Source: Gnetum montanum (lineage: Eukaryota > Plantae > Gnetophyta). From it: a stretch of DNA of 64,000 nt. Of the stretch, positions 6,209-31,615 are shown in pieces. Every line of letters starts with the position of its first letter. The first letter of the stretch is position 1. The notes under the pieces were generated by a model. It saw nothing but the letters and a program-made list of their open reading frames with translations, made no database searches and was not told where the DNA came from. The position numbers and the translations under genes are program-made. The stretch spans positions 185,142 through 249,141 of the forward strand of contig MNCI01003452.1 in assembly GCA_015680685.1 (NCBI GenBank). The letters run 5' to 3'.

Positions 6209-9200
6209 ATGAAGGTTTTCAGCTGGAATTGCAGGGGACAGGGTACCCCCTATAAAAGAAATACCATGTGCCGTATTGTTAAAGAGGAAGACTGTGATAT
6301 CGTTTGCCTCCAGGAGACCAAGCTGCAAGCAATGGAATCATACCTTCTCCAATGGGAAGGTTGGGTTACCCAGATGCACCCCTACCAGGGCAGGGCCGAG
6401 GACCTTGCCATGTTGGCACGATATGCCATGCAACTGGTAGACACTTCACAGTGGGCCATCACCATCCAGATTCCCACTCAAGGAATTTGGCTGACCAACT
6501 TCTACGGGGCACAAGCATGGGAGCTGAGGCTGCAGGAGCTGAACCGGGTGGTGATGTTGGTGCCAGACCACCATTCCTGGATGGTGGTGGGCGACTTCAA
6601 CTAGCGCTTGCACCCTTGGGAGAAGTCTAGGGGAGCTGCCCCCTGCCTCCGGGTGCACAGGCTTTCCAGGACTCCCTGGCAACTCACTCCTTGGTGGACT
6701 TACCCATTGAGAATTGCCAGTTCACTTGGAGCAACTGACGAAAAGGATCGGATTGTATCCTCTCCTGCATCGATCGGGTCTGTGTCAGCTCCGACCTCCT
6801 CCTTCGCTCCACCGTGCACGTGACGGGGCAGGAAAGAGTCACCTCCAATCACCGCTCGCTGGTCTGTTCGCTCGGATCGGATAAGCCCTGGGCCCCATGC
6901 CCCTTCTGTTTCGAGGCACATGGCTTTCCAAACTGTGGCTGCGGCCTTTGGTTGAGGATATCTGGGCTGATTATCGACTTGATCGTGATGACCCCCGAAA
7001 TTTCCTCAAAGAGGCCATGCTTCGTCTAAAGTGGGCCATCTGGGCCCTCCCGGTGGAGGAGAAATTTTCCTTCGGATCTGGTCAAAAGGTGGTTTGGGAT
7101 CAGCTCGGTCAACTCCAGGCTCGACAAGAGGCTAGGGAGGACTTGCATCTGGAGGAGCTGCGTCTCCTACGTCAACTCCAGAATCTTGACCTGGAGGAGG
7201 AAACATACTGGCGACAGCGTTGCTGGGTCAGATGGCTTCAGGAAGGGGACAGACAGACAAAATTCTTCTTTGCCATGGCCAAAACTCGAGGTGGGAGCCA
7301 ACCTCGTTGCTTGCGAACCCAGACAGGCGAAGTTATCGACGACCCGCAGGGGATCGCCAATGAGATGTCTCACAATACTGGGAGAAAATTTGGACCAAGC
7401 GGCCTACTTAGCCCATCTCGGTCCACGTGGAGAGGATGCTACACGAAGGAGGCAACAAGTGGCTGATGGCCCCCTTCTCTTGGCTGGAACTCACCACCAC
7501 TATCAACAACATGCCGGGAGAGAAAGCGCCTGGACCTGACAGATGGTCCCTTGAATTCTTCAAGAGTTTTTTGGATATTGTGGAGCCCAATATCTTGGAT
7601 GCGTTCAACCTCATGTTAGCCAGGAGACAAGTGCGGCGAGAAATCAACTGCTCTCGAATTGTGTGCATACCCAAGCAGATTGACACACACCGCCTGGAGC
7701 ACTTTCGTCCCATTGGAGTTTGCAACGTCCTCATCTGGATTTTCTTCAAGCTCCTGGTCAACCAACTCGGGCCTCTTTTGCCCAAGCTGGTGGGAATCAA
7801 TCAGGCTGGCTTTGTGCAGGGTAGGACCCTTCAGGATCAGGTTCTCCTCCTGCAGGAGGTGCTGCACTCCCTCCGGACTACGAGCTTCCCCGACCTATGT
7901 CTCAAGCTTGATATAGCTAAGGCATATGATACGCTTAGTTGGGAAGACTTGCAAGCCATTATGCATCAAAAAAGGTTTGACCAAAGTTTCATCCAACTTT
8001 GTATACACATCCAATCCTTCGCTGGTTTGTCGTTCAATGTGGGGGGGGGGGGGGGGGGGGGGGGNTCCCTTGGCAGGGGTTTGAGATAGGGTGACCCGCT
8101 TTCGCCCTTGCTCTTCATCATTGCTATGGACCTCATGCAGCATTATTGTAGCACGTTCGGGGTGGAGGGCTTGGACATCGTTGGGGTGGCCTGCCGGGCC
8201 GAACACTACGCTAATGACACCATGCTGCTCAGCCGGGCAGCGGCCCCACAAGCACGCTATATTAACACAGCCCTGACCCGACTGGCAGAGGAATTGGGAT
8301 TAGAAATTAACTGCACCAAATCTGCGGTGCATTTTATCAATGTTGATGCGCAAGTAAAAGGCAGGGTGGTGCAAATCCTAGATATCCAGCCTCGGACAAC
8401 TAAAGACACATACATGGGCATACCGCTGTACCAATGGGGCCGAAACAATTCGTGGGGGCCACTCCTGGCAAAGGTTGAAAGGCGGATGAACCATTGGGCC
8501 AATCGCTTCCTAACTCGCAAGGGCCATCTCCTCGTGGCAACCGGGATTCTCATGGCTATCACACAATTTGTGGCGGCCGTTGCCGCCCCCCCCCCTCCCA
8601 AATGCCATCATCCACTAGATTAACAAGATGGTCCGAAGCTTTGTTTGGGGGGGGGGGGGCAGGGGGGCAAGCTCCACCTCGTTAATTGGACCTGCATCAT
8701 GCGCCCCCATAAGGTAGGGGGGCTGGGCATTACGTCCTTCGAGGACGAAATCATGTTACGGCAACAACGGCTCCTGCACCGCCTAACGTGCCCACATGGG
8801 GAACCTAGTCAGTGGGCCCGAATCATCAATGAAAAGTACATGCAGTGGGAGGCTGGGATGCATGCCTCATGGCCTTGGCAGATGCTCTACCAGCACGCAT
8901 GAATGATGCTGACCCAGGGTTGGTTGGACCTTGAGCTGCATGCCCTGCTGTCAGCGAAATATCCATCAGAGAATGGCTGGCAACGGATTTGGTGCGGGTG
9001 GCTCCTTGAAAAAATAAAAATCTTTTTATGGTTGGTACGGTCTGACGCCCTCCCTGTGCGTGCCATTTTGTGCAGGCGCGACATCATGCAGGACGACACC
9101 TGTCCTTGCTGTGGCACCATGCCCGAGACGATTGAACACTTTGCTTATGACTGTGGCTATATGCGCACCACTTGGCGAGAGGTAGTGGTGCCGCCCACCC

Positions 9201-9321
9201 CCCTCCCCCCCCGGGCCGATGCAGCTGACAAGCGACTCTTGGGCATCGATGCTTTATGGGTGGCGTGGCTTGGAAGGTGTGCAACCGCATAGTGTTCCAT
9301 CAAGACAGGCTCCCCCCTTAG
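6209..9321 (+). pseudogene. LINE-A ORF2: AP endonuclease, reverse transcriptase, zf-RVT
   Basis: EN: MKVFSWNCRGQG, CLQETKL, VVGDFN, SNHRSL. RT: KAPGPD, FRPIG, NQAGFVQGR, KLDIAKAYD, GLR*GDPLSP, YAND(YADD). Then KVGGLGI, KIKIFLW...CPCC...ETIEHF..C and WKVCNRIVF. Confidence 0.95.
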
Positions 9322-9369
9322 CGGCTAATTGCTCAAACCTGTCGTGCGTGGAACGAAATCAGAGTGGCC

Positions 9370-10710
9370 ATGGGTGTAACGTCGACGTTTGAGCTTGACT
9401 GCGTCGCCTTCTGGGAAGATGAGGAGCTCTGGCGGCTAGTTACCCGGTGCGGTTGGTCTGCGACCTGGATCTGGCAGATGACGCGTTTTTCACTAATTGG
9501 GACGGTGACAGGACCATCTTTCGAGGACGCGAGATTCGCGTTACCGAATCTACTATCGCCAGCTGTTTGGGGACCCAGGCCGTTGGGGAAGTCATTCTGC
9601 CTACCACCTGTGGCCTATAGGATGCTGAGCTCTTTTTTGATGGACCCGTGTCACGAACGCAAAGTCAACAGGTTTCCAGATCTTCCCTCCCCCGTCTTTG
9701 GGCCCAAGCAGCTGATCTAGTGGACTGTTTTTTCGTCTAGTCTGGCAACGGGTACAAACTTCAGGGTTTACATTTTGTCTTCATGCGTTGTTTGAAGTTA
9801 GGCCTCCAGATTAACCTCCCGCGTTTTTTCTTGGAGGTTCTCCTTCTTAAACGACGCGACCGACATTCGGGGTTGATCCTGGCTCAGTGGAGGGGGGCCT
9901 AGGGGGCGCTAGGCCTGTCGTCTTCTACCCCCCGCGGGGGGTCACCCCTGCTTGCTCCCCTGCTGCCCCCCGACCCCTCGACCTCTCCCAGCCGAGGGAC
10001 TCGCTGGACTCTGCTAGCGACCACCTTCGCGTGGGGACGTCGCTCCCAGCAAGGCCCGTGCCTCCCTGCTAGTCTTATCAGGACGGCTTCCCCCTTGCCA
10101 GACCCCCCCAGCGATCGCTCCAACTGGGTTGAAGAGCTGCAACAAGCCGAACAACGAGCCGCTACCGTTGCACGGGAGGCGGAGCGGCAGGAGTGGGAGG
10201 TCAAGTGGTACGAGACCCTTGCCCAGTCTCGGGTTGACATGGAAGCCCAATTCCACGAGTGGGAATAGGAGCAGATGAGACAACATGAGCTAATGGCAGA
10301 GGTTGCTCGGGCCCAACTCATTGACGAGATCTGGGCCCAGGTGCAGGAGGAGTTGAGACAGGAGGACACAGCTCGTAGAGCTCAAGAGGAGGCAGAGAGG
10401 GCAGAGCATGAATGCTTACAGGAGGAGGAGCAGAGACAAAGATAGCTTGACCAGGCACACGAGCACAATGCCTGACAGTGGCTTAGGGGGTCGATGGCCG
10501 TGCCTCATCCTGGGCATCAGCTGTGAGAGCTCCTGGGGGGAGCTCCGAAGACATATTCGGCGAACCTCAGCGCGTTTCCGTTCGGACGCGGGGGATTCAC
10601 CGGCGGACCGAAGCAGGCGGAAGTCCGCTATGCAGGGTATCCAACAGGCGGCAAACTTCATGGACACCGAGGAGCATCGCAACACCTTGGACTTGCTCCA
10701 TGAGCTTTAA
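9370..10710 (+). pseudogene. LINE-A 3' extension (ORF2 tail or ORF3): Athila-accessory/PF20167-like domain, Pro-rich linker, coiled coil, J-domain-like C-terminus
   Basis: Reconstructed across frameshifts: MGVTSTF...LWRLVTRCGW; FFTNWDGDRTIFRGREIRVTESTIASCLG; LHFVFMRCLKLGLQINLPRFFLEVL; E/Q/R-rich helix at ~10110-10475; PCLILGIS..ELRR..RFRSD..MQGIQQA..RNTLD. Confidence 0.75.
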
Positions 10711-13379
10711 CGCCTGCACTGCGCCTGCCGTCGTGTGTCGACTGGCCCCTAAGGGCCCCTCCCCACCGGCGACACGGGTTCTTTTGCTTCTTCTACCCCC
10801 CATGCTTTTGGTTTTTGCCTCCCCTTCCTTTGTTGCTGGTGGGGGGGGGCACCACCCCCCCACTTTCTTTTTCGAGGGAGCACCCCCCTGGGGAACGTTT
10901 GTCAATTAGGGTGTCGGTGTTTTGCATGGGGGTTTCCACCCCCCCTCCTCTTTTCTCTGTGGGCCATTTCTGATGACCTTCGAATTGTATACTCTTGTAC
11001 TATAATTTTTCAGTAATACAATCCCGAACATTTCTCAAAAAGAAAAAAGAAAAAAAAAGGGTGCATCCTTTGTATTTTTGTTAATTGTAACTTTGTTGAT
11101 AAATCTAGTTTAGGTTCCTTCTCAATCTTTTGACCGTTGCATCATTTCAGTCTGTTTGTAGTTTCAATTTGAAAAATGTCAAGGAGAAAGCATGATACTT
11201 CACTAGAGGTCTCTGTGGCCTGAGGCCCTTGCCATTTGCTTCTAGGTACCGGTTCAGCCTTCAACTTTGAGGTTGAGGACATCTGAGTGCCATTATGAAG
11301 TTATATAACTAGTTATCAAATCATTGTCACATGGTGCTTGCCCTTCTGTGGTCATTAGATATGTCATTAACTAGGCAAGAGGCTAAGTCCTATGTTGTAT
11401 TAGTTTTCAAGGTGCAGTATATGACATTCCATTAACTAAACCATAGTTAGTGGTGAAGTGCACCAAATCCTGGTTGATTCTGGTTTGAAGCCATTCATAC
11501 AGTTTCCTTCATTTGAACTAGATTTTGATGTTATTAATTGCATTCTATGGTCATACGTGGAGGGCTGGTTTCTTTATAAGAGTAGCAATCATTTCATTTT
11601 TTGAAGTTAAAGAAGTAAGATATTGCTTCAAAACTATAGAGGGCAAAACCATGTTTGAAAGGCCTAGGATAGCCAGGATAGATTTTTTTTTTCTTTTGGG
11701 GGTACATGTTTAAAAATCCTAAGAGTTTTGAGAAAGCTGATAGGCCATTAAATAGCCTTGTTCTTATCTTTTCATTGTTGCAAATATGACTTAGCTTAGT
11801 AGAAGTTATAGCTTGCATAATAATTATCCTTGATTGCAAGGTAGATACAAATTGGAAGGCGTTGACTCTTCTTCATGCTAAGGTGTGTCTTGAGATTAAA
11901 ATTGATTGGTTTGAGACTCTGTAGGAAGAGATGTTTAGAGGAAGTCATACGATTTTTCTAGCGCAGTGCATTTCTCTCAAGTTTATTTGATTTTTGCTAT
12001 GGTCTTTACTCTTTTCATGGTGGTGGATCATCTCGTGGTTGTTACCATCCCAAATACTAATAGCTAGGAAGATGTGAATAAGTTGTGGAATGTGATTGTA
12101 GGAGTAGCTGTTGAAGCCTCCACGGTTGAGGTATCCAAGTCTCATGGAGATTGAGATCTTGGTAATAACAATTGATTTCCTTTGCATGAAAAAGTTTAAA
12201 GTTGGGTTCATTGGATTTAGTGTACGCCGAACGAGCTTTGGAGAGCAGGTGCGTTTCTTATAAGGTGACTTGAATTTTGTCAACGTTGCACTTCACAATT
12301 TACAAAGATATTAGTGAGTATGTTTACAACTCAGCTTAGTTGGTAGACTTGGTGAATGCAACTGCAGAGTGGATGACAAAGTTAGAGCCAGAATTTTGTT
12401 TGATCATAACCAGTTGGCAAAGAATAATACACTGTTAGTGGTTAGTTGCCATCTTGTAGTTGTTTAGTTCATCAAGGGCTAGGAAGCTAAAGAAAACGTG
12501 AATAAGCTCTAGAATGCTGAGATGGATATCTTGGCACAGTTGGACTGTGCCAAGTTAAATAAACAGGTTGAAGACCAGACTGCCATAATTTCAAAAGTTT
12601 TTTTTAAGGAAGGTTAGGATTTATTATATAGAGAATGAATAATTAGGCAGTTAGTGTCAGTGTTACAGACATTGCATCAAAAATAAAAAGGTGGTGAGAA
12701 ACCCTTTGAGACTTTGTGGCACAAAGAAGAGGGGAACATTATTGAGCATCTTCTTCATAATTTCAGTACATCCCAAACATTGGTTTCAGGGTTCCCCAAA
12801 GCCATGAAACTAACAACAAAAGCCCCTACAAAAGTGACAAAACAAAAATTGGCCATTGGGCATGCAGAAGAGACAAACAGATACAATTAGACATCTTTTG
12901 CCTATGTAGGTGATTCACAATCCTTATTTACCCTTGGACTTGATCAAGTTGAAGGTCTCATTAATTTCCTTAAGTTCAGCCTGCTTGCTTTCTAGTCATC
13001 TAGGGCTATGACATGCCTCCATTTCCAAATGGTGCTGTTCCGCAACAAATATGGTATCTCTTCATAACAAATGTTGTAATAAGACTTGAAAGGATAAGTT
13101 GTAATCAATACATGAAAGGGCACATTGTAAAAATGGGTATGTCTCTCAAGAGGACCTTTGGGGGTTTGACCTAAGGTATCTATACATAGGCATTAGAGGT
13201 TACATCAACATAGAGTTGCGAAGCTAGTAAAGGTGAGTAACAAGTGCTAGGTGAAGCAGGACATGAAGGTGACTAGCCATCCCTTCTAGCTAGTTACAGG
13301 CCTAACTGTAGTTGTAGTGTTAGATTGCCTCTAAGGGATAGATACCAAAGGAAGATAACCCCTAGGAATCCTTAGAGCA

Positions 13380-14778
13380 TGACCTAGATACATTATTCCA
13401 CATTAATAAAACATTCTGCATTTTCCCTATTATTTTCTTTATGCATAATGTTAAATATTACATATATTTGACATTTACCCCGATATCTAAGAACGGAATG
13501 TCATAGGCTAGGTAGTGGAACCTATCATGGTGAAGGTGGGTCACCCTTAAATTGTGATGTGACATGGACAATGCATTAATTCCCAATACATTATATGGGT
13601 ACTTGTTAGGATAGAACCACTTCTTGCAAATGCTCACTAGGCTTTTAAGGAGGTTTTACTCTATCTCTTTGTGTTCATCCTCCTCCACTTGTTTTTGCAT
13701 TTCTTTCTCTTGTTGATTTTGTTGTTTCTATTTGAACTTCTCCTACTCCTATTGAGCTACCTGATGTTGTCAATGCCTCTTTTCCTGCTCTTGCAGTTAT
13801 ATTTGTCTATCATCCTCTTGTTTTTGCTTCCTAGCTAGTTCTTTTTGCGGGTTCTATTGTTCTTTCTTTTACTTGGCTTTGTCTTGGAACTCTTGCCTAA
13901 TTTTCTTCTACATGATGTGAATGTTGATCTTGCTACATTGTTGCGCCTCCCACTTGAGCCAAACTTCAATGTCTTTCTTAGCCCTAGTGATCTTCTCCCT
14001 GAGATAGCCTTCAGCCTCTTGCCTAACGCAACCTTTGAAGTCCCACATGTAGGCTTCTACAGGATAAGTCTACATCATAGCTTTGCATTAATGGCTGCTC
14101 TATTATGGGCCTCTATCTCTTGTCAAAACACAATTCATAACGTCTAGGAATAACTGGTCATCAACTCATCATAGCCACCTATTTGATGTGATGACTCTTG
14201 TCCAATCCCATCTGTGAGATGGTCCTGAGGTGCAAAGTACTTGGTGTTGGTAGTTTTGTCCATTGATGGCTTCTCACTAGGACATGCATGTGCCCTGTCA
14301 ATGTCTTTTGACATCACATTGGTCCTACTATTGCTTGTCCTATGATAGTAGGGCCTTTGAAATCTGCTACCATCATTGCTTAATGCTCAATGTAACCATC
14401 CCCTAGTCTTGTGCCTGCTTCTTTTTCATTACCTTCCAGAGGGTAGAAATGAGCTTTGAATGCTTAGCATTTTGCATATGCTAGAGGCATGCTAAGATGA
14501 AATGTGGAATATTAACCCACCTTTGAAGCTTTAAACACTTTAGAAATGTAAAGTGAATGCCTTATAGTTTTGAGAGATTACTACTTTGCACCAGAAATCA
14601 CTCTACAACCTTGATGGCCTTTTGCAAAATCAATTACAATCTAGTCCATGGAATTTGGTCGTTGGAAGTGGTTGGAACCCTCAAATGGAAGAAATTAAAA
14701 GTAGTATGTGAGCCCCAATCTAAGGGTAGCATGAGTCTGTTGTCCCAAAGGAACCTCCAAATACCTCATGATGGTCTA
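13380..14778 (-). mobile_element. LINE-B remnant, 3' part (second half of the PF20167-like domain, coiled coil, J-like start)
   Basis: Minus-strand translation FLVQSSNLSKL*GIHFTFLKCLKLQRWVNIPHFILACL..KHSKLISTLWK matches LINE-A. Followed by DIEVWLKWEAQQ, a Q/E/K coiled coil and KWFYPNKYPYNVLGI...RFH. Confidence 0.8.
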
Positions 14779-15667
14779 TGATGAAGTGTCATTAGTCGAT
14801 GCGTCGACTAGGCCGCATATACGCGGCTATGTCGACGCGGCCCCGTTGACGCATCCTTCCATGCATCGACGTGGCCCTGTTTACGTGGAGCCTATTCTAG
14901 CCTATAAATAAGAGGGCTTCTGCCTCACTTAGGTACCTTTTTGTCAGTTGTAGCGAAGTTCTTGCAGTTTGTTCCCACGAGAGTTAGAATATTTTCCAAG
15001 TGCCCGCAGTAGGTGTAAGAAAGGTGTTCGGCTCTTTATTTGAGCGTTGATGTATTTGAGCCCATTAGTGTGAATGGCAATAAAGACGAGCTTTTTAAGC
15101 ATTCCTTGCAGCATTTGGACTTAGTCATTTAATGCATTTAATAGCTTAATATTTTTATGCTTTGATAATTACTTAAGTTTCTCTTGTTATTATTTTAATT
15201 GCTATCGCTCGTTCATAGTTCATAGAAACCATAAGTATGACCATCTTGAACGTAAACCCAACGCTTGGCAACCCAGTGACGCTTAATGTCTAGTAACCCA
15301 GTAGTGGTTAGGGGATGCTTAGGACGTGCATGGAAGATGGGATCGGATACTTATGCTAGGAATAGTTAAGATACAGATTAGGATAATTATAGATTAGATA
15401 ATATTTCATTCCTTACTTTCCATGCCTTAACTAGATGCCAAAAGATAAAGTAAAAAGCCATAAAAATCAGTTGCCTCAATCTCACTTAACTATCGCCACT
15501 AGAACATCACAAGTGAGGTTGGGAAGACAACGACCGTTCTAACCCAAGGTTTTGTTGGTTAGGGTTTGGTGTATGCAAAGTGCTTACAGTCTACAGGATT
15601 CGACCGAGTCGTGTGTGAATGCCCGTGATTCGTATGGTTGGGTGTAGGGGTACCTAGCCACTCATCA
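14779..15667 (+). repeat. Athila-1 5' LTR (889 bp)
   Basis: TGATGAAG...CTCATCA, TATAAATA at ~14903. Direct repeat of 27162-28036 with scattered, mostly transition, differences. Confidence 0.95.
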
Positions 15668-15668
15668 T

Positions 15669-15686
15669 TGGCGTCGTTGCCGAGGA
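15669..15686 (+). promoter_or_regulatory. Primer binding site, tRNA-Asp type
   Basis: TGGCGTCGTTGCCGAGGA immediately after the LTR; resembles the Athila consensus TGGCGCCGTTGCCGGGGA. Confidence 0.85.
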
Positions 15687-16629
15687 CTGTTAGTCTTACA
15701 TGCACTATTTAACCTTAGGAAAATTATTATTCACGTCGTTGGAACGGACCCAGGATAGCAACATTTACGCACACTAGGCAGATTAGAGTAAAAAGTAAGG
15801 TACACCAATTAAATGGCTCATCTAACATCCAACATGTCTTCTTCTCATAGGCGAGATGTATCCAACCCATTGGTGCCACAAGAATGTCAGGTGGTATACA
15901 AGCATCCCAATGAATATGTCCCTGACTTCACATTCATCTTACATTAGGATGAGCATCTACGATGGTGGGACATGAAAGGCAACATCATACTACCACTTGA
16001 TCAATCAGCTCCTGGAATGCTATTTCACAATCTTGCCAGACTAGGCATCTAGGACTGTGGAGTGGAGTATGTCATGGAGGACCATGACTACTGGGACTAT
16101 CGTCCCACTGAGGCCCAACGAGCACGAGCCTAGTAGACCAGCAGCAAGCAGAACGATACGAACACATGAAGGGGAAATAGTTCAGTAACCCCTTATTCTT
16201 GCAAGGGCTGCAGGACGATGGGGAACCTATCTTTCATGATTCCCATTTGGCTGAACTTCCTTTGGGGTAGTAGATCATTTAGTCCATCATCCAGAACAAG
16301 CCTCCAAGTGACCGAGATCCTCAAGGGGATGGAGGGTCACGTAGCAAGGATGGGCAGGATGATCGAGGCCATCATAAGAGCAGAGGGGGAGATTGACACC
16401 GGAGCGGTGTCGACTCCTCTCCTTCTTCTCCATCCTCTCGCTCCCCTCTACCGTCACCCAGTTCAGACTCTAATCACAACCATGGTAGAAAGGAGCGAGG
16501 AGGTGGTGGTCGTAATGATCGAAGGGACTGGTGTGGGGAAATGTGCGACCAATCGCGCGAGGCTTACCATCATGAAAGGAGGGGTAGCCAAAACCATCAT
16601 AGACATCGTGGTCCTTAGCAGGACTATGA

Positions 16630-19600
16630 CTTGGATGAGCCATTGTTGGCTCCTCGGAGCATGCTCCATATCGCCCAGGTAGTTCAAATACCTAGTAGGC
16701 ATGTAAAGGATAGCTGGATCAAATGCATTGACATAAACAACATCCCTAGATTTGAAGGGGGATACAATTGTGATCCGCAAACTCACTTGCAAGCGTTTCA
16801 TGATGCTTGCACCCTGTAGAACATTGACAGTGATTGGCAAAAGCTTAAGCTGTTCCCTCGTACACTCATCAAGGAAGCAGAAAGTTGGTATTAGTCCTTG
16901 GAACCAAAATCAATCAGAAGATGGAGTACGATGCTTGAGATTTTCAATGACAAGTATCAAACCTACTCTAGGGTGGCGAATCTGAGACGTCAAATCCAAG
17001 GCTGGAAGCAAGGGAATCATGAACCCTTAGATGCAGCCATGAGTAGGTACTATTCATTGTTACATCGATGCCCTGGTCATGGCTACTCTCAACGGGCACA
17101 GCTTTGCCATATCATTGATGGGCTCCGCTTTGAAACTAGAAAGACCCTTGGCGTGTACACCCAGGGACGATTATTAGAACTGAGGGCCCATCAACTGTAG
17201 CGCCTCATTAAGCAAGTGGCCAAAGAAGAAGGGGAACTCAGAAAGAAGGAGAGTGCGGAGGAGTTTAATCTGGACCCTTCCATTAGAAAGAGGGAAGTCC
17301 AATTTTGCGAAGATGAGGAGGAATCACCATTGGAACTAGTGGTGAATTGAAAAACCTTGTCCTTACAAAAGTTTGCATTTGAAATATTGGCAAAGGTTGA
17401 TGAGATGTGGGACTCTTTGGACAAAAAATTCCAAGGTGTGCTAAAAATTGCAGAAGAGTCCAGAGAACAAGGTAATGATCATGATCAGCATAGGAAGAAG
17501 GAAGCTGAATGTGCCCAACATAAGGGTAAGGGCAAAGTTGTTGTAGCAGAACAGGTTGCAGACTTTGACACGGAGGAGGATGATGAATGTGGCATATGCC
17601 AATATGGACATCCTAAGGGGTGTTGTCCCGTAGTGTTACATCTCCAAGAGTCTGGGGTGTACACATTGAATCCTTGCTTGGTGAAGAGGCAAACACCCTG
17701 AAGGTTGCCTTACCCACAAGGCAACCCAAGGCAGTTCCATCAGCAGCAAGGGTATTATCTGAGTGGAGCGCTACCGCAACCTTATGAATACTTCCAGCAG
17801 TGGCAGCAACCACAAGCATGAGGAATGCCACCTCCAAGGTAACAGTACCCTTATCGACAGCCAGATCCCTATGGGTACTACGTTTAGCAACCAGTCTCTC
17901 CACGGGACTCGTCCAGTCATGCCACATTTCAGAAATATTACCACCCCCTAGAATATTTCCAACCGCAATCTCCATCACCCAGGGGGGAAAGCCCACATCT
18001 CTACTATCCTCCATCACCTTCTCCTGCCACTCCTTCACAGCATTCCACTCAGCTACCACCTGCTCCACCTATGCAGGGGGAGATACTGCCACAACCACAA
18101 CAACGAAACGCTACGAGGGTTGTCAACCTACAACCAGCACCTTAGCCAAGTCGACCGGAACCCAAATCATGAAAACGTCATTTTTTCCAGCCCAATAATC
18201 TGCACATACCCTCACATACACCTGTGGCCAGTGCCTCTGAACCCCAAAGCGCCTCCACCGTTCCACTGCTCGAGCAGCCTTCAAACCAAACACCCTCCAA
18301 CGTACAAACGATCACGCTCACACATGTCGTGACTGACTGGATAAAGGTAAGGCATCTTCCTTGGAAATTGACTGATCTGGGAAGCCCCCTCATCTATCTT
18401 TAGGTGGTAGGAAATGAGCCCTGTAAAGCTCTTCTAGACTCAGGGTCAGGAGTCAATTTGATCTCACATGACATGTACAAGAATTGGAACCTGCCCCCGT
18501 TAAAGAAGAGCAACATTTGGCTCGAGCTAGCAGACCAATCCATCACCGTCCCCATGGGATTGGTGGAGGACATTGTGACCACTGTTTGTGGGTGGTCTTA
18601 TCTTGCTGATTTCCTTGTCATTTGTGTGGAAAATTGCAAGGGGAACTTCCCAATCATAATGGGAAGAGCCTGGCTGAGCATGGTGGATGCAAGACTAAGA
18701 CTCTGCGATCTTTCCCTTGAAATTTCAAAGGAAAATCCTTTTAGAAAGATTGAGAAGAAACACATTCCATGCATTGTGTACAATGACTCAGGGTGCAACT
18801 GTGTGCAGCAGTTATGGTCCGCTAAGTGGACATCCATTCAAGCATGCAATCGGTGTACCGAAGAGTCGCCAGTTCAATAGTGCCTGTATGCAATAGCCAC
18901 CAACCAAGAGGGCACCCACTGGCTGACAGCTGATCCTGCTAGCAGCACATTGTGCATGGAACCATTTGAGGGGCTTGTACGAGCCTACGTAGAAAGCATG
19001 GATGAAATGGAAGAGGTTCATCAACAAGTCTCCACTATTGATGGCCATGATGATTGGGGAAAGCTGCAAATCCCTGAAAGCTTCAAACACGAGCCCTTAG
19101 AGCTCAAGTCCTTACCGGCCCACTTAGAACATGCATTTTTGCACAATGGGAAGCCGGTAATTATCAATGCCACCCTTGCTCCTGAACAAAAGAAAAAGTT
19201 GCTGAAGGTGGTGAACAAATGGGATGCTGCATTTGCATGGTCATATCTTGAGTTAACTGGAGTTGATCTTAGGGTCTACCAACATCGAATTTATATTGAC
19301 CCTTCCATGAAGCCTCAACGACAACCACAAAGATGATTGAACCCCAAGTTGAAGCAGGTCATAAAAAATGAAATCGAGTAGTTGCTAAAGGCAAGGTTCA
19401 TCTATTCCATTGCCGATAGCGAATGGGTTAGCCCACTCGTTATTGTGCCGAAGAAGGGTGGCAAATGGAGGGTTTGTATAGATTTTCGATTGCTCAACAT
19501 GGCTACCTTTAAAGATTACTTCCCACTCCCATTTGTGGACCAGGTGTTGGATACCATTGCAGGGCACTGTTATTATAGCTTTTTGGATGGTTATAGTGGC

Positions 19601-21910
19601 TATAACCAAATCCAAATTGCACCAGAGGACCAGGCCAAAACAACTTTCACAAGTCCATGGAGGACTTTCGCATACAAGAAGATGTCTTTTGGCCTGTGCA
19701 ATTCGCCTACCACGTTCCAATGCCTTGTCCTCAACATCTTCCAACAGCAAATTGGCAATGGGGTAGAGGTCTTCATGGATGACTTCTCTACCTATGGGGC
19801 CACGTTCGAGCAAGCCTTGGAGTGCCTTGAGCAAGTTCTGAAAAGGTGTGTAGACACTAATCTACGGCTCAATTGGTAGAAAAGTCACTTAATGGTCCAA
19901 GAAGGCATTGTGCTGGGGCATCGTATCTCACAAACAGGGATTAGCGTGGATCCTGAAAAGATTAGGGTCATCCAAGGAATCACACTACAACCAAGCACTG
20001 TAAAAGATGTTTGGTCATTCCTTGGCCACATTGGTTACTGCTGGCGCTTCATTGAAAATTTCTCAAAGATTGCCAAGCCATTGGTAGAACTCACAAAGAA
20101 TGATGCTCCGTTTATCTGGACCAAGGAATGTGAATCTGCGTTCCAATTGCTTAAACAGAAACTCATAGAGACTCCAGTTCTACGGGCACCTGATTGGTCT
20201 AGGCCCTTTCACATCATGATGGATGCATCCAATTATGCCTTGGGAGCCGTGCTTACACAGTGTGATGATAAAAAACGTCCATACTATATCCACTGTGCAA
20301 GTCGTAGCATTGTGGGTGCTCAACTTAACTACACCACCACCGAAAAGGAGTTGATGGCGGTGGTGTTCGCCTTGGAAAAAATTCAACACTATGTGCTCAG
20401 ATACAAGGTGTTTGTGCATATTCACCACAGTGCTATCCGGTTCCTGATGAACAAACTAACGGTAAGCCCCCGCATATTCTGGTGGCTGGTGATTCTCCTG
20501 GAATTTGACCTCACCATGGTAGACCGGAAGGGGACCGAGAATGTGGTTGCTGACCACTTGTCTCGGTTGCGATGGGATGACACAGAAGAGGAGGAGCCCC
20601 TCTCTGACCAATTTCCAGATGAACTCCTCTTCGTGGGTGCAGTTGATTCGCAGGTGCTCAAAGCATCACCTTGGTTCAGCCACATCCTCACCTATCTCAC
20701 AACTCAGGAGTTGCCAAAGGAGTGGGACCATTGGCAGAAACAATAGTTTCTCCATAAGGCCAAGCATTTCATGGAAATCAGTGGCCACCTTTATAAGGTG
20801 TGCATAGATGGCCTGGTTCGATGGTGTGTCCCTGATGATGATACACGGTGCATTCTCCAAGATGCTCATGAGGGTCCTTGTGGGGGCCACTATGCTGGAT
20901 GTCGCACAACCATTAAGATCCTGCTTGCAGAGTATTATTGGCCCACAATTTTCAGGGATGCACAATGGTTCGCCTGCTCCTGCGAACGATGCTAGGGAGA
21001 TGGTGGGATGACTGCATGGATGAAGAGACCTCAACAGTGGATCCAACCACTGGAGCCCTTTGACATTTGAGGCATCGACTTCATGGGGCCCATCACACCC
21101 TTGTCCAACAGAAAGACGTACATCATCATAGCTGTGGACTACTGCACAAAGTGGGCGGAGGTGGCAGTCGTCGTTGATTGTTCTTCAAACATCGCCGCAC
21201 GATTTGTTCAACAACAAATCGTCAACAGGTTTGGAGTGCCCCGTGCACTCATCTCAGATAATGGCACTCATTTCACAGGTTTCACTTTTCAAAAACTCAT
21301 GCAACACTTAGGGGTTACCCATAAATTTACCACACCTTACCACCCCCAAGCCAACGAGTAGGCCGAAGTCACCAATAGGGAGATCACTAGGATCCTTACT
21401 CGAACCATCAGCAAATATAGGAAGGATTGGAGCACCAAACTTAACGACGCTCTCTGGGCCTATTGCTCCACTTGGAAGCTTCCTATAGGCTACTCTCCCT
21501 ATGAGTTAGTGTACGGTAAGCTACCAAAACTACCAATCCAAGCTGAACTTCGGACACTATTCACAGCTAGTGACTTAAGCCTTGACCTACCACTAGCACA
21601 ACGTGAACGACTTATCAACCTAAGTGTTCTAGATGAGAATCAATTAGTGGCCCTATCTTCAAATGAGATCCACAAGGCCTACAACAAAAAACATCATGAT
21701 CTTAGGATTCGGAAGGTCACATTCAGACGTGGAGACAAGGTGTTGTATTGAAACCCCACACATGTATCACAACCGACCAAGTTTCAAACACTGTGGGAGG
21801 GACCTTACATTGTCTCCGAAACCTTCTCATCTGGGGCCTTACTTATCCACAAACCTGAGGACCTTACTAGAATGCAGTTGGTCAACCGGCAACAACTGAA
21901 ACCTTTCCGT
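16630..21910 (+). pseudogene. Athila-1 gag-pol with stops and frameshifts
   Basis: gag (KLKLFP...W..M...F..KY), Zn knuckle CGICQYGHPKGCCP, protease ALLDSGSGVNLI, RT SEWVSP...CIDFR...FLDGYSGYNQI...VFMDDF, RNase H DASNYALGAVL...TTEKEL, integrase H-H-C-C, DFMGP, ISDNGTHF, YHPQAN. Confidence 0.95.
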
Positions 21911-24087
21911 GAACTCCACCTAACCAGTGTTGCCATCTCATCATCACCTAGACAACCTCGCTTCATGTTTCGCGTCTCCTCCTTTCCACCTAGTCGTGGG
22001 GAAGACCATCCTCCATGCTAACCCATTCTACTACACCCCTCACTGTTTTTTGGAATTTTTTGTTTTACACTTTTTTGTTTTTTAACATCGTTCATACATT
22101 TGCCAATTCTTGCTAATTTTTCCTTTCTTAAAATTATTTTTCCATTTCCTTGTTGTTTATTTATGTGTATGTGTGTGTTTCATTTTCAGTTGATTGCTAG
22201 TACGTCGTCTAATTGTCATTAGGTTTGGCGTGGATGGTCTTCGTTGCGATGGGTCACTGGAAATAGTCACTTATTTTACCTTGCTCTTGCCCTCGCATGG
22301 TTGTTCTTGGATTTTGCATCTACTTTCACCTCATAATATTGGTAGCGAGTCCACGTCATCCACCCATTCACCCACTCCATGGTTTTCCTACTCTTGGAAA
22401 TATGCAAACCCCTTTCACTTAAAAACATTATAATTAATGTGTGACTTGTGCAGTTCCTAGACTCAGGGATGACCCAATGGTTTAAATCGGTTGTGACTTC
22501 AAGGGGAATGCATCATTCGTCGTCCTCTTCTACCCCTTGGGTGGCGGGAGTGCCGTTACGAATTTCTTCCCACTCCAAGTCTTCTCTACAAGGAAGCTCC
22601 TTGGTAGTTTGACCTTGCATGGTGTGGTCCTCATAAAAAAAAAAAAAAAGAGAAAAAACAAAAAACAAAAAAAAAAAACACAAAAAAAAGAAAAAAGAAA
22701 ACATGAGGATTCAAAGCACACCCTTGATTGAATGCATGCACACAAGCATGGGTCTTTGCATGGTGTGGTTTCCACAAAATAAAAGAAAACACAAGAATAA
22801 TATCTTAACCATGTGGGAATTCAAAGCACACCCCTTAGACTGCCTCTCATGGGCCACAAGCACTAGTTATGGGACTTCCTTCGTCCCCTCTAACTTAGTC
22901 CCATTTCACTTCCTTCCTCTCACGTCTGTTGGAGTGGTGGTTCTCTGTGGGTGCATTCCTGTCCACTTGGGGGGTGGCTGGGTCTTCGCATGTTGCTGCG
23001 ATGTCACTAGATGTGGATGGGTTTGGGTCTGAACTTGGGATAGGTCCTATCGGGTCACTTAACCACAACTTCACACGGGGTTTCATGTGACCAAAAGTTG
23101 GAATTCCAAACCTCACTCCTCTCTCTTCACCCACTTCTCTCCATGACTCACCTTGCTGCCGGTCTTATGTTTTGGTAGTTGTCATAATTCCTGTGAACTT
23201 CTCATGCCTTGGTAGGTTCTCATGGATGGGAGTCTTAACCTGCGATCGCCATTCCTTAGCCCTGGGGCCCACGGACCCTGGTGTTGGGGATATGCAAGGG
23301 CTACAAAGGCTACCGCCTGCTATGGGGAGGACCTACTTGCATATTCTTGGTGCCGTTTGTTAGTTTCCCATCCTCTTGGTTTGTTGGTGGCTTGCTTCCA
23401 TGTTACTCATCGCCCGATTTCTTTCTCGCGGAGTCCTTTCTCACCACGTTCTCGTACCTTTGACTCGTTTTCTAGCTCGACTTCCCTTCCTCTTGCCTTC
23501 AGCCATGTTCTGGGCCCCTCATGCTCTTCAACTGTCCCAATTTGGCATTTTAAATTCATCTTTTTGGGCTTTTTCTTGGTTGGTCAACGCTGGTCAACGG
23601 GTGCGACCCCCTGCGTATACGGGGCCCCATCGACGTAGCGCCCAACCCCTATATATATGGCTGTTGCACTTTAGATTTTCATCATTTTGCAAACAAATTG
23701 GGGGGAGATTTTGCCATTTTTTCTAACGAACTTATTCCCAAGCACCCACATTCCATCGCGTGTTTGCGTCAACCAATCCTTGCCCTCTTAAGCACCCAGA
23801 GATATGCTCTTAGTCGTGGCCCGGGGGGGGGGGGGGGGAAGCCTATGTGTATTTAATTAATTAATTAGTTAATTAAGACTTTGCACCTCTAAGGGAAGAA
23901 ACGAAAACAACTGTTTAAACTCCAACTCATCCCTTGTTGTTTTTGGCTCTAACCCATGAATTAACACTCTGAGGGATTTAATGGAATGCCCTTGCCAACA
24001 ACATAACTTAGTTGAACTGAGAAAGTGTATAAGGACCATTTTGAGCTACTTATGCACAGTCTAATGGGTGGTTATGTTTGATTGTAG

Positions 24088-26922
24088 ATGGCCCCAAAAC
24101 TAAGGCATCCAAGGGGCGAAGGACCATCCCAACCTAGGGACAAGCGTCCACGAATGGGAAGGGGACAAGGCGTGTAGCAACTAGAGCACGCGGAGGGCTC
24201 TCATGCAACTGGCCCCCTCCGCGAAGGACCTTATGTGGAATCTGTCCATTAGATTCCCGAAGAGGAGATGCCCAGTGAACAATCGCAGGGAGATGAAACT
24301 CTAGGGATAGCCCCACGGCTTGAGGTCACCCTGACCCAAGCTTGTCTTGATGCTATCAAGCCGCAAGAAGTGCAACGGATGGTCCTACAAGAGCTAAACT
24401 TTGGACCATTTCTTGAAAATGCATTAGAAGATGTAAGACTTCAATTGCAAAATTCTCCTATGTGGTTGATCATCACAACCAGTGGTGAATGGTACCTAGG
24501 AGAAACCTATCTCTTCTGGACAAATCGGCAACTGGGGTCCAGAGTAAGGATTAATGACATTTATGTTTCTTACTTTGCAGAGGCAATAGCGCAAGCTCTG
24601 GGGTTGCCAGAGACCGAAGTAGATGTGGCGGAGATCCCAAAACAAGCAGACCTTGAGGTAAAAGGGGAGTGGCTCCGACAGTGCTATTGGGTAGATCGCA
24701 AGGAGTTTGGCACTCTAACCACCGTGGAGAGGGTGTATTCAAAGATCGCGTCTTACCATCTAGACCCAACGGTAAGACCCAACAAAATCATAGCCTTCTC
24801 CGCTCGTGCCTGTGTCGCCTTGAGTGAAAAATTTCCAATGAGTCTTCCACAGTTATTATTCTTGGAAATTGAAAAGAGGTTTGCCAAAAGCGAACGTGGA
24901 AGGCAAGCTCTTCCCTTCCCCTGCTTAATTAGAAAATTATGCAAACGGGCAAGGATAGCACGTTACGCCAATGATACACTCCGACACGCCCCGATTGTCT
25001 CATGGCATGAAATGATGAAGGATAGGACTCCTGCCACTACACATACGGAGGAAGAGCTGCACAAACGACAAGGTCGAGTTCGCAGACTATTGTAGAATAC
25101 ATCCGCGAAATCCGACAATCGCTCTTGAGCCAGCAAGAGTAATCTGGTAGGATTGGTGGAGGGGAAGACCCTTCGGTTTATCGCCCTGCAATGAGCCACC
25201 TGGAGCAAGTGGCTCGATCAGTTAGTTTGTTAGAAAGAGCAGGGCCGATGTTCTCCGCCGCCTGAACACAAGTGCTAGCAAGAACAGATCCTAGCATCCG
25301 AGAGGTAACAGTATCAACCCAACAACTATTTTCTGAAATTTCAGGGAATACTGTTACCTTCTCGGTACGCTTGGAAGATGGTGAAGGGGCGACAATTTTG
25401 GTGATGTAGCACCAGGGATAGGAGATTGCGGCTGAAGTGGTTGTTGATACAATTGCTATGGTTCTCAACGCACCGGCGGCACCTGTACCAAATGTACATG
25501 GACTTCAAGATGTACAGGCATCCGTCGGAACTTCACGTAGCAAAATTGATGCAGCACAACATGAGAAATTGTTGGACCGACTAGTGGGAACCGGGCAACC
25601 GCTTCCGAATATCTTTGACCTTTCGGATAACATCACTGCAACCCAGTTGGAGTTGCTCTCGGCAAGGGGGAAGAGCCTCATTTTAGAAGAGCAACTTGAA
25701 GCTGCTCGAGCCACTTGTCAACATTTGGCAACAGAAGTAGCCCAACTAAGAACCCAACTTGTCGATCCAGCTCTCCTCAATCGTGAGCTCACCAGAGATG
25801 AAGCTTTTCAATAGCTTTAGATCAAACTTCAGATAGTTGAGGATGAGTGAGAGTCGGTGATCTTTGATAAGTCCTTGGCAGATGCTTAGACATATCATTT
25901 AAACAAGGACTTGGAAGAGGTTCGCCAGGAGAACGTCAGGTTGACTGCAGAGGTCCATCGCCTGCGTAATGTTGGTGTTGAAAATGAGCACATGAAAACT
26001 TTTATTCACCAATAGTAGGAAAAGCTGGCCAGGGTGAATGCTGACGTGAGAAGGTTGGCCATTGAGAACTGAAATCTATCCATGGAGGAGGTTCGAACTT
26101 TGTGATAGAAATCTGCCATCGAAATTGCCGCTTGGAAGAACGAGGCCCTAAAATTTGAAAAAGTCAAGAATTAGTATAGGGACCAAGTGGGATTGCAAAA
26201 AGAAGTAAATGAAAAATAGATTCAAGTCGCAAAGGCTAAGATGAACCAAGCGCTCCAACAACTCCGAGAGGGAGGCGAGGTATGGCAACCTATTTTTTAT
26301 GGGTTGAATGCCTACAATCAAGTTGAAATCTGCCTCAGAGTTGCAGATTGAGGAAACCCCAGAATATATGGAGCTTGCCAACTTTCGCTATGCAAACTTG
26401 GCTATGCTCACAGTCGGGAGACCATGGTCTAAATTGGAGAAACAAGTGGCCGCCTCATATTCTCTATATGAGGGCGAGTTCCAAGCACACAAAGCAACAA
26501 AGCAAAAATTGGAAGCAGCAAACGCGGAACTCAAGGTTCTCTGCATGCGATTTGAAGGACAACGTATGGTCGCGGAGAACTTGGCCTGTCGAATGACTGA
26601 CTACCAGAAGTTGCAGACATCAATTCGAGCGTTCGACATCGAACGAAAATAGTTCACAGCTTGGTTTGTCAACTTGAAAGAACTCTTCCCCGCGCTGCCA
26701 TGCCTTTAGGAGGTTCCAGTCCCGGCGCACATTGGTGAAGCTACCTGGACGATGAACGATCCCAGAAGCAAGGAAGAAAAAATGAAGGCCCTTCTGGAGG
26801 CTTTCCGGTTGCCTTTAGAAGTTGTAGTTGCTACGGGGCAACCATCATTCGTGCCACCACTGCAGCATGGGCCAGAGGCTGGTGAAGGTTCGTTAGAACC
26901 ACCGCCACCAGGGACGGTGTGA
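24088..26922 (+). pseudogene. Athila-1 accessory (env-like) ORF: PF20167-like N-terminal domain plus long coiled coil
   Basis: ATG directly after tgtAG. LFWTN...VRIND...AIAQALGLP and LPFPCLIRKLCKRA motifs, E/K/Q-rich C-terminal half, ends EPPPPGTV*. Homologous to 48004-50796. Confidence 0.8.
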
Positions 26923-27148
26923 TCTTTTCGCAATTTTTGCATTCTTCTACATGGCAGAGACTCTAGGACCAGCAAGGTGTTCAATTTTTTCTCTGAACAC
27001 CACCATTTTTGTAATTTGTCCTTTTCTGTACACTCGGGCACTTGGTAAAATTGACGTTGTGTCATGTGTGTTTGTCAAGTCATGTATGTTGTAAATAAAA
27101 GCCCATACCTTCCAAATTGTAGAGTAACTCGAGGACGAGTTTTTACTC

Positions 27149-27161
27149 AGTCGTGGGGGTA
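27149..27161 (+). promoter_or_regulatory. Polypurine tract of Athila-1
   Basis: AGTCGTGGGGGTA directly abutting the 3' LTR; same motif precedes the Athila-2 3' LTR. Confidence 0.75.
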
Positions 27162-28036
27162 TGATGAAGTGTCATTAGTTGATGCATTAACTAGGCCATG
27201 TATACGTGGCCGCGTCGATGCATCCTTCCATGCGTCGATGTGGCCTTGTTTACGTGGAGCCTATCCTGGCCTATAAATAAGAGGGTTTCCGCCTCACTTA
27301 GATACCTTTTTGTCAGTTGTAGCGAAGCTCTTGCAGTTTGTTCCCACGAGAGTTAGAATATTTTCCAAGTGCTCGCAGTAGGTGTAAGAAAGGTGCCTGG
27401 CTCTTTACTTGAGCATTGATGTATCTGAGCCCATTGGTGTGAATGGCAATAAAGACAAGCTTTTCAAGCATTCCTTGCAGCATTTGGACTTAGTCATTTA
27501 ATGCATTTAATAGCTTCATATTTTTATGCTCTACTAATTACTTAAGTTTCTCTTGTTATTATTTTAATCGCTATTGCTCTTTCATAGTTCATAGAAACCA
27601 TAAGTACGACCATCTCGAACGTAAACCCAACGCTTGGCAACCCAGTGATGCTTAACGTTTGGTAACCTAGTAGTGGTTAGGGGATGCTCAGGACGTGCCC
27701 GGAAGATGGGATCAGATACTTATGCTAGGAATAGTTAAGATACAGATTAGGATAATTATAGATTAGATAATATTTCATTTCTTACTTTCCATACCTTAAT
27801 TAGACGCCAAACGATAAAGTAAAAAGCCATAAAAATCAGTTGCCTCAATATCACTTAACCATCGCCACTAGAATATCACAAGTGAGGTTGGGAAAACAAC
27901 GACTGTTCTAACCCAAGGTTTTGCTGGTTAGGGTCTGGTGTATGCAAAGTGCTTATAGTCTACGGAATTCGACTGAGTCGTGTGTGAATGCCCGTGATTC
28001 GTATGGTTGGGTGTAGGGGTACCTAGCTAGCCATCA
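27162..28036 (+). repeat. Athila-1 3' LTR (875 bp)
   Basis: TGATGAAG...CCATCA followed by the TSD; about 14 bp shorter than the 5' LTR in the GTCGAC repeat region. Confidence 0.95.
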
Positions 28037-28310
28037 GTCTATTTAGAGAGCTATATCTTGACTTCCCTAAAGCAGATTCCATCTCCTCTTCAGCGGCTAA
28101 AGAACTATTCGAAATTGACATCTTTTTTCCCCCTTTAACTACAAAAAAATGCATTCTAACCTGTTACAGATAACAATTGCTAGAGCTTAGTGTTGTTTTC
28201 AAATAGGGTGATACTACGCTTGAAAGTTGGAGTGACCCCCATGGTGTATGTTGCCTCCCTATACTTTGCAGCACCCTAGCTACACGGAGCTAAAGAGATG
28301 GGACTAGGTA
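28037..28310 (-). mobile_element. LINE-B remnant, 5' part (on the other side of the Athila-1 insertion)
   Basis: From ATG at 28242: MGVTPTF...KL*QLLSVTG*NAF...FFSR*RGDGICFREVKI*LSK*, continuing in frame through the GTCTA target site into TIMRYLEV at 14773 and below. Confidence 0.8.
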
Positions 28311-29454: not shown

Positions 29455-31373
29455 TACTTGATACTAGATTTGAGCTTCCACCCTCTTGTATTATTAAGCC
29501 TTCCATTTCAGGCACACTTCAATGTCCTCTATAACCTTAAGGATCTTAGCTTTAGCATATGCTTCAACATGACTAGTGATCCTACCCTCAAATTCTTGCA
29601 TGGGGCTTCAGTTTGGATCTTCACCTAAGCTTCAACCTGCTTCTTGATTTTCTTCTCCATCTCTTATCAAAGGAACTTCCAGTCTGTGTCAAATGGCCAA
29701 GCTTGTAGAATGGGCATCCCCAGATTCTCTACAAATGGCTTAACCCAGTCTTGTGGATCCGCATCATTGGCTGTAGTGCCCTCCTATTAATGGTTAGAGG
29801 CCCCAATAGATAACTCCATATCCTTCTTTCTTACTTGGTGATGTGCTTTGGTAGGCTTTCCCTCTTGAAGCTCTTCTGGTTGAATAGTTGAAGAGTTAGA
29901 AGCAGGCTTGGTGTCCTGTTGAGTGAAGAATTTGGAAAATGTGTGCCCATCATATGTTGAAGTGGCCTTCTCTTAAGCAATCATGAACCTGATTTTAACT
30001 CACAAGGTATCACCATTTTCTTATATCCTTTCTATTAACTTGCAATGCTTTGCCAAAATGCTATCCTAGGGATTCCTAGTCCCTTGCTTTGTTTCAGCAT
30101 AGCAATTTCTTCCCATTTAACCAAGTGGACATTTGGATCCCCACCCCCTGACCAAACAAAATGTCTAATTATCATATAATCTTGTTAATGATAGTTGCTT
30201 GGAGGAGAGGTAAACAAATGGAGGCAACAGACCTAGTGACAGTTGCAAGCACCATAGGAGCCAAGATGCATCTTCCCTTGCTAGTGAAGAATTGATTGGT
30301 CCATAATTCCAACCTGCTCTAAAAGTTCTAGATTAGGATTCCCCAATTATGTATGTCTCCTGTTCCACTTGAAGGGGAATACCCAAATATGAATCTCCTA
30401 CATCTCCAATATCCACCCTAAACTTTGGACAACAACCCTTTTAGTTTGTAGGCATTATGTAGGAGGTGGGTGTTGGACCTCTAGCAGATAATGGCCAAAC
30501 CCAACTCATCTTCCACCTACTCCAACACTTGTTTAATAGCTTTGCCTTCAAGAGTAGAAGCCTTGGTTATGATCATAGTGCATCTACATAGTAGTTGACT
30601 AGACTCCTATACTATGTGATCTCAAACGTCCCAACCCCACTTTATCAAGTATGTCCACATGGTGTCCATTGTAATGATGAAAAGGTAAAGGGGTAGTGTA
30701 TCAACTTGTCAAAGTCCCCATTAGGGTTGAAAAATTCTCTTAATTTCCATTGATCTCCATGGAGCAAGCCCCAAACTATTGAATATGTAGACATGGTTGG
30801 ACAAATTTACAATGAAATCCTTTTTTGATCATGTTATAGTGAGATGCCTCCTAACTTAAGGAATTATAGGCTTTGATTGTATCTAACTTAAGGAACATGC
30901 TTGGCGATTTGAACTTCTAACTTGAGTGCATAAGCTTCTTGTTAAGGATGATTTGCTCTTGTATGAATCTTCCTTTGACAAACCCCACCTAGTTGCCATC
31001 ACCCATGTTATCCATTAGGGCTGCCACATTGTCATTCTTTGGACAAGGATCTTAGAGAAAACCCTAATAAGAATGTTGCATACACCTATGGGCTTGTAGT
31101 TAGATCAATCAACATGATTCTTTTTTTTGGGTACAAGGACAATCTTGGAACAATTGATCTCATGGCACACTCATCCCCACCACAGCTTCAAGTTAAAGGC
31201 ATCCACCAAACTGACATCCATGTTCTCAAAATATTCTTTGCACAACTCAATTGCCCATTTGTCAGGTCCAAGGACATGATTTGGATGCACGAAAGTAATG
31301 GCCCATCACACTTCCTCGGAAATAGGGTTTGGTAGGTGGGCATTGTTGTGATTATCCAATACCTGTGTGACAT
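29455..31373 (-). mobile_element. LINE-C: truncated, internally deleted L1 copy retaining RT and part of the coiled-coil tail
   Basis: Minus strand: KCDGP (KAPGPD-like), LKLDTIKAYNSLS, IIRHFVWSGGG..VHLVKW..KGLGI. After an apparent deletion: EMEKKIKKQVEA and DIEVCLKWKA, matching LINE-B DIEVWLKWEA. Confidence 0.8.
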
Positions 31374-31615
31374 TAACTAACATTTATCTAGTCTCCCTCC
31401 TATTCCAGATTTCCTTCCAAAGTCATTACATACTTGCTGCAGTTGTGTCCTCAACAACAATTGTTTTGGATTCATTTACTGTACTATATAAACTTTTGTG
31501 TAGTTTGTTTTTTTAGGTTCAAACTATTGAGGTGACTTTAGAAAGAAGTCCATTTTAATAGAGCATAGCCTTGGTCAAATTTCATTCATAGTTGACCTTA
31601 GAGTACATCTAGAGA

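Follow-up and report, generated by a model that had tools for sequence, protein, structure and literature searches.

A decayed second copy of a LINE tail module in Gnetum montanum, split by an Athila-like element, and its likely relation to the ORF2 protein of plant L1 elements

Introduction

In a 64 000-nucleotide stretch of the Gnetum montanum genome (contig MNCI01003452.1, positions 185 142 to 249 141; hereafter, the window), a long interspersed nuclear element (LINE), denoted LINE-A, carries a tail of some 1.4 kb (9370-10750, plus strand) behind its second open reading frame (ORF2). An earlier note, made from the letters alone, proposed that a second, strongly diverged copy of this tail lies on the minus strand, cut in two by an Athila-like long terminal repeat (LTR) retrotransposon, and that the tail is an old, selected feature of the family. 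The locus raises the question of whether the second copy is real and, if so, what the tail is and to which protein it belongs. Below, B denotes the two minus-strand pieces joined after excision of 14779-28041, and C the minus-strand LINE reverse transcriptase (RT) at 31419-30071. The reading preferred here, to which a probability of roughly 0.58 is assigned, is that L1-type plant LINEs bear a coding module behind the RT and zinc knuckle, of which B is a copy that has decayed and been split by Athila, and that this module is likely a C-terminal extension of the ORF2 protein (ORF2p) ending in a J-domain with the His-Pro-Asp (HPD) motif that would tether Hsp70.

A diverged copy of the LINE-A tail on the minus strand

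The observation of a second, minus-strand copy is confirmed. Frameshift-aware alignment of B with the LINE-A tail yields 181 codon pairs, 58 of which are identical (32% amino-acid identity), with a score of 181, far above the 32±3.6 (maximum 49) obtained for 200 shuffles (100 nucleotide and 100 triplet); against 176 other segments of the window, B is the sole high score. The two halves of B are each significant alone (49 versus a maximum of 40, and 147 versus a maximum of 45, each among 200 shuffles), and an ungapped block of 28 codons, 10 of them identical, crosses the junction, with eight other registers tried all scoring negative. In a gap-free block of 101 codons, DNA identity is 45% and the mismatches gather at third codon positions (55, 39 and 73 at positions 1, 2 and 3, respectively); none of 2000 site permutations, scored as the best of six frames, matches either the score or the codon-position bias. 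The peptide motifs quoted in the earlier note were all found, at 28242, 28104, 14561, 14462, 13622 and 13523. The coiled-coil-like parts of the two tails align as well (Table 1), with composition adding to the score. The mismatch fractions by codon position between the two tails (0.53/0.43/0.70) are near those between the RTs of LINE-A and C (0.48/0.38/0.63), and the first domain of the tail therefore seems to be constrained nearly as tightly as the RT.

The insertion that splits B is bounded by an LTR pair (14779-15667 and 27162-28036, TGATG...CATCA ends, 809 of 875 aligned bases identical) with GTCTA on both sides, and excision of 14779-28041 rejoins the pieces. The junction is as originally described, with 67 codons running from ATG 28242, codon 68 contributed by the retained GTCTA copy, and the next codon divided as ac and c. 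The continuous frame claimed from this ATG holds in phase but is not open: there are seven stops in the first 68 codons. The 439 codons of 14777-13461 contain 29 stops, and a frameshift lies near 14745; as coding sequence, B is dead. Taken together, the alignments identify B as an old, broken and distantly related copy of the LINE-A-type tail module.

The LINE-A family and its J-domain

By its domains, its A-rich end and its homologues, LINE-A is a LINE of the plant L1 type. Of the 7985 candidates scored as ORF2 homologues, 622 reached E<=1e-20, the named ones being plant L1 proteins; no LTR pair was found around the element, and the search for a target-site duplication over 4000-4800 returned just a 7-base A-run match. 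A poly-Gln (CAG/CAA) tract occupies 4610-4740 (plus strand), where ORF1 begins.

Twelve of 24 listed public sequencing runs contain words of 8600-11060. Contigs, whose depth does not equal copy number, were compared with the LINE-A sequence only, in four runs over 8600-11100 and four over 10470-10770 (six different runs overall). Short contigs, numbering in the thousands and for the most part 80-95% alike, span the end of ORF2, the tail and the 3' end, and the tail is multi-copy in runs carrying four organism labels (A, B, C and E). The multi-copy depth is unbroken from ORF2 onwards, over the tail and as far as the A-rich end; at 9336-9365, the two large runs each contribute 26-41 contigs. No contig spans the whole element, and a single diverged contig extends over 9304-9460 and so crosses the Met at 9370. 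Other copies hold 22 additional bases at 9460 (loose ends of 10 contigs per run in two runs) and two additional bases near 10490 (loose-end consensus), both counted by hand, so that both frameshifts of the LINE-A tail are private deletions. With the 22 bases restored, the distance from Met to Phe-Phe becomes 46 codons, the same as in B. Among the variants over 8600-11100, 25 in the tail were classified, 7 as synonymous and 18 as not; these are uninformative on selection because they mostly reflect the decay of the LINE-A copy itself.

In most copies of the LINE-A family, the tail ends in a stretch with HPD 22 residues after the Gly of helix I. LINE-A itself reads Phe-Arg-Ser-Asp, with Arg 22 codons past this Gly, and in other copies, sampled by 44-49 contigs in each of three DNA runs, the His letter at 10580 accounts for 96, 94 and 98% of the contig depth and the Pro letter at 10582 for 92, 87 and 88%; the Asp codon is without a listed change. 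All 15 segregating sites (20-85% mean share) within 10497-10707 are synonymous, against 33% expected for transitions (p 6e-8); read in the other two forward frames, 3 and 1 of the 15 would be synonymous. The sites are not fully independent, and the listed changes are those that reach 45% in some run. This test used 28 of 36 variant rows, among which another 6 are private to the LINE-A copy (5 replacements) and 7 are rare in DNA (4 replacements); the 8 excluded rows precede the frame or follow helix IV, two intermediate-share replacements being found there. Within the family of LINE-A, the J-domain has evolved under purifying selection. Together with the multi-copy state of the tail and its RT-like codon bias, this bears out the suggestion of an old, selected family feature.

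The assignment to the J-domain family draws on several comparisons. On a profile built from 61 distinct J-domains, the LINE-A stretch tops 4248 windows, weakly as it stands (E 1.4, 7-8.5 bits), and with six read-majority letters it reaches 22.8 bits, against a maximum of 6.5 for 500 shuffles; the Gly-His spacing of 22 recurs in 49 of the 61 profile domains. BLASTP against Escherichia coli DnaJ gives E 1e-4 in a single-pair comparison, and the top match in the ESM Atlas is a DnaJ cluster (0.86). The AlphaFold2 model is helical (predicted local distance difference test score, pLDDT, 76), with three predicted helices after helix I, and in a Foldseek search with this model J-domains take ranks 1, 2, 4 and 6, though with E>0.3. 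At 80% likeness, the depth over helices I (10503-10545) and III (10635-10700) exceeds the depth over the HPD loop by a factor of 10-40; many more diverged families therefore share these helices than the HPD sample covers.

Extension of ORF2p or separate reading frame

The W..RN..F motif at the end of ORF2 (from 9271 on) and the Met at 9370 share one frame, interrupted by a single TAG at 9319, which lies 17 codons ahead of the Met. With the private deletions of the LINE-A copy set aside, this frame continues from the last ORF2 motif as far as the J-domain. Among the 120 listed of the 622 ORF2 homologues, 73 carry the motif, none of these ends within 12 residues past it, and 72 continue for 30 or more; a profile of the ORF2 end scores highest, among 2544 windows, at 9271-9399 (11.2 bits, E 0.034, the next reaching 4.7), a stretch that takes in both the TAG and the Met. 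Because homologues and profile run past the motif, the TAG is attributed to decay, and the tail is taken to extend ORF2p. The tail is thus most likely a C-terminal extension of ~460 residues, predicted to consist of an N-terminal domain, a coiled coil and the J-domain, and the equivalent of ATG 28242 would probably be an internal Met of the extended protein rather than a start codon.

The same module and J-domain could instead form a third ORF, with ORF2 terminating at or near 9319 and translation restarting at the Met shared by LINE-A and B. The closeness of the TAG to this Met agrees with such an arrangement, which is nevertheless unlikely: termination at 9319 would leave the last ORF2 helix shorter than in any of the 73 homologues, each of the six remaining internal stops in the tail is likewise a TAG or TGA one transition away from a sense codon, and at 10708 ~99% of the depth shows a sense codon instead of the stop.

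Searches for homologues of the tail were negative. A word search for tail homologues passed 0 of 7998 candidates, HMMER against 1.84 billion representatives returned just two short repeat matches in unrelated proteins, and searches of metagenome contigs passed 0 of 597 and 0 of 592. For the N-terminal domain, there was no Pfam family match, the Atlas search was empty, the PDB sequences gave 0 matches, and the structural model was unusable (pLDDT 35). By its motifs, this domain is a candidate relative of PF20167 (Transposase_32); the profile comparison was not significant, with no PF20167 match in Pfam and, against the two PF20167-like ORFs of the window, co-linearity by eye at an HHalign probability of 1% and a profile z of 1.2-1.3. 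A separate candidate match of the domain, to 23239-23611 (score 59), involves another LINE-A frame, is ridden with gaps and was judged compositional.

The origin of copy B

The RT of C lies 1.8 kb upstream of B and on its strand. Behind this RT, a fragment matches the start of the coiled coil of B (Table 1) and thereby connects a B-type tail with a second RT lineage. The 400 bases between this RT and the fragment match neither LINE-A nor B, and no endonuclease region of C was found within 36500-40000. LINE C as a whole (31419-29467, minus strand), with its RT, these 400 bases and the B-type fragment, looks internally deleted or rearranged. Upstream of B, in another frame, I*KAQIDHIF resembles the motif of the ORF2 end and is suggestive only. 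B is likely derived from a LINE and is most simply a 5'-truncated copy, and the RT 1.8 kb upstream may belong to a separate insertion.

Alternatively, the tail could be a host gene or a nested element that LINE-A carries passively, with B an unrelated insertion of it. The link between B and an RT is indirect, and the boundaries, target duplication and clear poly(A) that were looked for around B were not found, as this scenario would have it. It is contradicted by the purely synonymous segregating sites in the J-domain, by the continuous depth across ORF2, tail and A-rich end, and by the tail fragment behind the second RT of the window; it is already largely refuted and has only a slight chance of being correct.

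Several observations weigh against the view of B and the LINE-A tail as copies of an ORF2p module ending in a J-domain. The similarity of the two tails begins at the Met, as would fit a start codon. The upstream region of B does not rise above shuffles in comparison with LINE-A, or above background on the ORF2-end profile. In the runs compared, no long contig joins ORF2 to the J-domain in a second copy; the RNA reads are mostly <90% alike and could be intronic; and of 473 variant rows over 8600-11100, 40 were considered, position 9319 lying outside them. As for the J-domain itself, Pfam gave no DnaJ match for either LINE-A or B, the PDB sequence search no match, and a wide structure search was led by unrelated helical bundles (best Z 6.2, HscB at Z 5.4). 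In B, the claimed spacing stands, with 22 codons from the helix-I Gly (13583) to the His (13517), whereas the HPD motif is absent, this His being followed by Tyr-Leu; the J-like region does not reach significance in comparison with LINE-A, its score being equalled by 107 shuffles of 200 in one test and by 16 of 200 in another, and is marginal on the J-domain profile (0.2 bits, reached by 21-23 of 500 shuffles). Accordingly, the J-domain is demonstrated for the family of LINE-A and not for B.

Genomic setting

The window is eukaryotic, plant-type DNA, in which exon-like pieces of a transporter gene flank ~37 kb of stacked transposons (Table 1). These pieces (1483-1958 and 39119-39580, plus strand) have GT-AG ends and a weak match to TPT (E 0.0077), and presumably belong to a gene of the nucleotide-sugar-transporter type; all the elements appear to sit within one intron of ~37 kb. 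A minus-strand LTR element occupies 31617-37769, an oppositely oriented LTR of the Athila type interrupting one of its LTRs at ~36545-37636, and an imperfect palindrome of 72 bases lies at 40035-40106. A second Athila-like element (43066-51868, plus strand; LTRs 85% identical) has a gag match and a 3' ORF, and is probably non-autonomous because no RT or integrase match was found within 44000-51001. The 3' ORFs of both Athila-like elements (24540-24960 and ~48410-48840, plus strand) match PF20167 below the curated cut-off and are identical at 73 of 177 residues, each being followed by a coiled-coil-like stretch; a search for further relatives passed 0 of 276 candidates.

Table 1. Coordinates of the LINE-A, B, C and Athila-like features in the window.
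Feature	Position	Strand	Remarks
LINE-A ORF1, DUF4283 domain (PF14111)	4944..5303	+	E 2.7e-21
LINE-A ORF2: endonuclease (APE), RT, zf-RVT	6212..9270	+	decayed; domain search
LINE-A ORF2 C-terminal W..RN..F motif and helix	9271..9399	+	one frame through TAG 9319 and Met 9370
LINE-A tail, N-terminal domain	9370..9893	+	private 22-nt deletion at 9460
LINE-A tail, coiled-coil-like stretch	10122..10481	+	48% Glu, Gln, Arg and Lys (EQRK); after Pro-rich linker
LINE-A J-domain	10495..10707	+	HPD position 10579-10587 is Arg-Ser-Asp here; family copies mostly His-Pro-Asp
LINE-A A-rich 3' end	11039..11058	+	
B tail, decayed J-like end	13390..13622	-	helix-I motif 13622-13578, His-Tyr-Leu at 13517; positional, not significant alone
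B tail, coiled-coil-like stretch	13656..14030	-	55% EQRK; score 67, 0/60 shuffles
B tail, remainder of conserved N-terminal domain	14433..14778	-	retained GTCTA copy included; 101 gap-free codons, 35 identical to LINE-A
Target-site duplication GTCTA	14774..14778 (left), 28037-28041 (right)	.	flanks Athila-like element
Athila-like Ty3/gypsy LTR element	14779..28036	+	gag, protease, RT, RNase H, integrase; Transposase_32-like 3' ORF ~24540-24960
B tail start, 67 codons	28042..28242	-	Met to just before Athila insertion; 6 stops
Fragment behind RT of C	29467..29671	-	matches start of coiled coil of B; score 81, 0/60 shuffles; 67% nucleotide identity
RT region of diverged LINE C	30071..31419	-	158/445 codons identical to LINE-A (35.5%)

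Possible function and comparison with known systems

ORF2 proteins of LINEs are large RTs, the folding and cis-preference of which hinge on poorly defined host factors, and a selected HPD J-domain inside the element's own protein would point to Hsp70 as a limiting partner. In live copies, the stop at 9319 would be read through as sense, the coiled coil may serve as a spacer or an oligomer, and the J-domain on ORF2p would tether and activate host Hsp70 at the element's own RT-RNA particle. By analogy with the hepadnaviral RT and the J-domains of viral polyproteins, such recruitment might aid the folding or activation of the RT: template binding by the hepadnaviral RT requires the Hsp70 system (PMC2094093), and passages of a preprint (bioRxiv 10.1101/2022.02.15.480533) describe the stimulation of Hsp70 by J-domains via HPD and the presence of J-domains in the polyproteins of 11 RNA-virus families and in the polyomavirus T antigen.

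The main functional rival to a role in RT folding is an anti-host role, whereby the module is likewise selected and the J-domain would draw Hsp70 away from the loading of silencing complexes or else remodel some restriction factor to which the N-terminal domain binds. The sequence of binding domain, spacer and terminal J-domain is the established logic of client-targeting co-chaperones among J-proteins and would suit this role. Passages of PMC11728184 report that accessory ORFs of other plant elements (Vandal) act in anti-silencing. Given that the N-terminal domain has neither a usable model nor a family match, and that fusion to ORF2p favours action in cis, the anti-host role is rather improbable.

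For recruitment of Hsp70 to the RT, the HPD motif offers a one-residue test of Hsp70 dependence. In annotation, tail fragments of the LINE-A family are open to being mistaken for host DnaJ genes. More broadly, the chances are about even that the elements described here represent an ancient, undescribed lineage of plant LINEs, the ORF2p of which would carry its own Hsp70 co-chaperone, as the first retrotransposon-encoded J-domain, selected across RTs that are ~35% identical, with a fused domain that Athila LTR elements may also have in their 3' ORFs. Searches of the open full-text literature listed no J-domain-bearing LINE (Repbase, Dfam, subscription papers on plant LINE clades and bioRxiv supplements could hold one), and the searched passages of PMC5203782 do not mention DnaJ.

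The LINE-A family adds a new type of accessory domain to the plant L1 elements. With the L1 clade of plants, LINE-A shares the DUF4283 ORF1, the endonuclease-RT-zf-RVT ORF2 and, probably, the presence of an extra domain at the ORF2 C-terminus. In L1s of the Ta11 type, this place is taken by an archaea-like RNase H behind the CCHC motif of ORF2 (passages of PMC5348765), whereas LINE-A has instead ~460 residues with a terminal J-domain, and neither 6210-9373, read in three frames, nor the tail pieces gave an RNase H or RVT_3 match; conversely, none of the 120 listed of the 622 ORF2 homologues matches PF00226 or the tail. Insect LINEs of the R1 and Jockey groups similarly bear an accessory domain at the ORF2 end, an SF1 helicase (PMC6338049; see also PMC4686597), but the domain, the host kingdom and the LINE clade all differ. 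With class C J-domain proteins (DnaJ/Hsp40, PF00226), the LINE-A family shares the LG motif of helix I, HPD 22 residues on, and a J-domain that is not N-terminal, while differing in that its domain is divergent, transposon-borne and lacks a G/F or zinc-finger region, its activity being predicted. The likeness of the N-terminal domain to the Athila 3' ORF is confined to co-linearity by eye. The viral J-domains offer a parallel in kind, a selfish replicon with its own J-domain in a replication polyprotein, the replicon in the case of LINE-A being a non-LTR retrotransposon.

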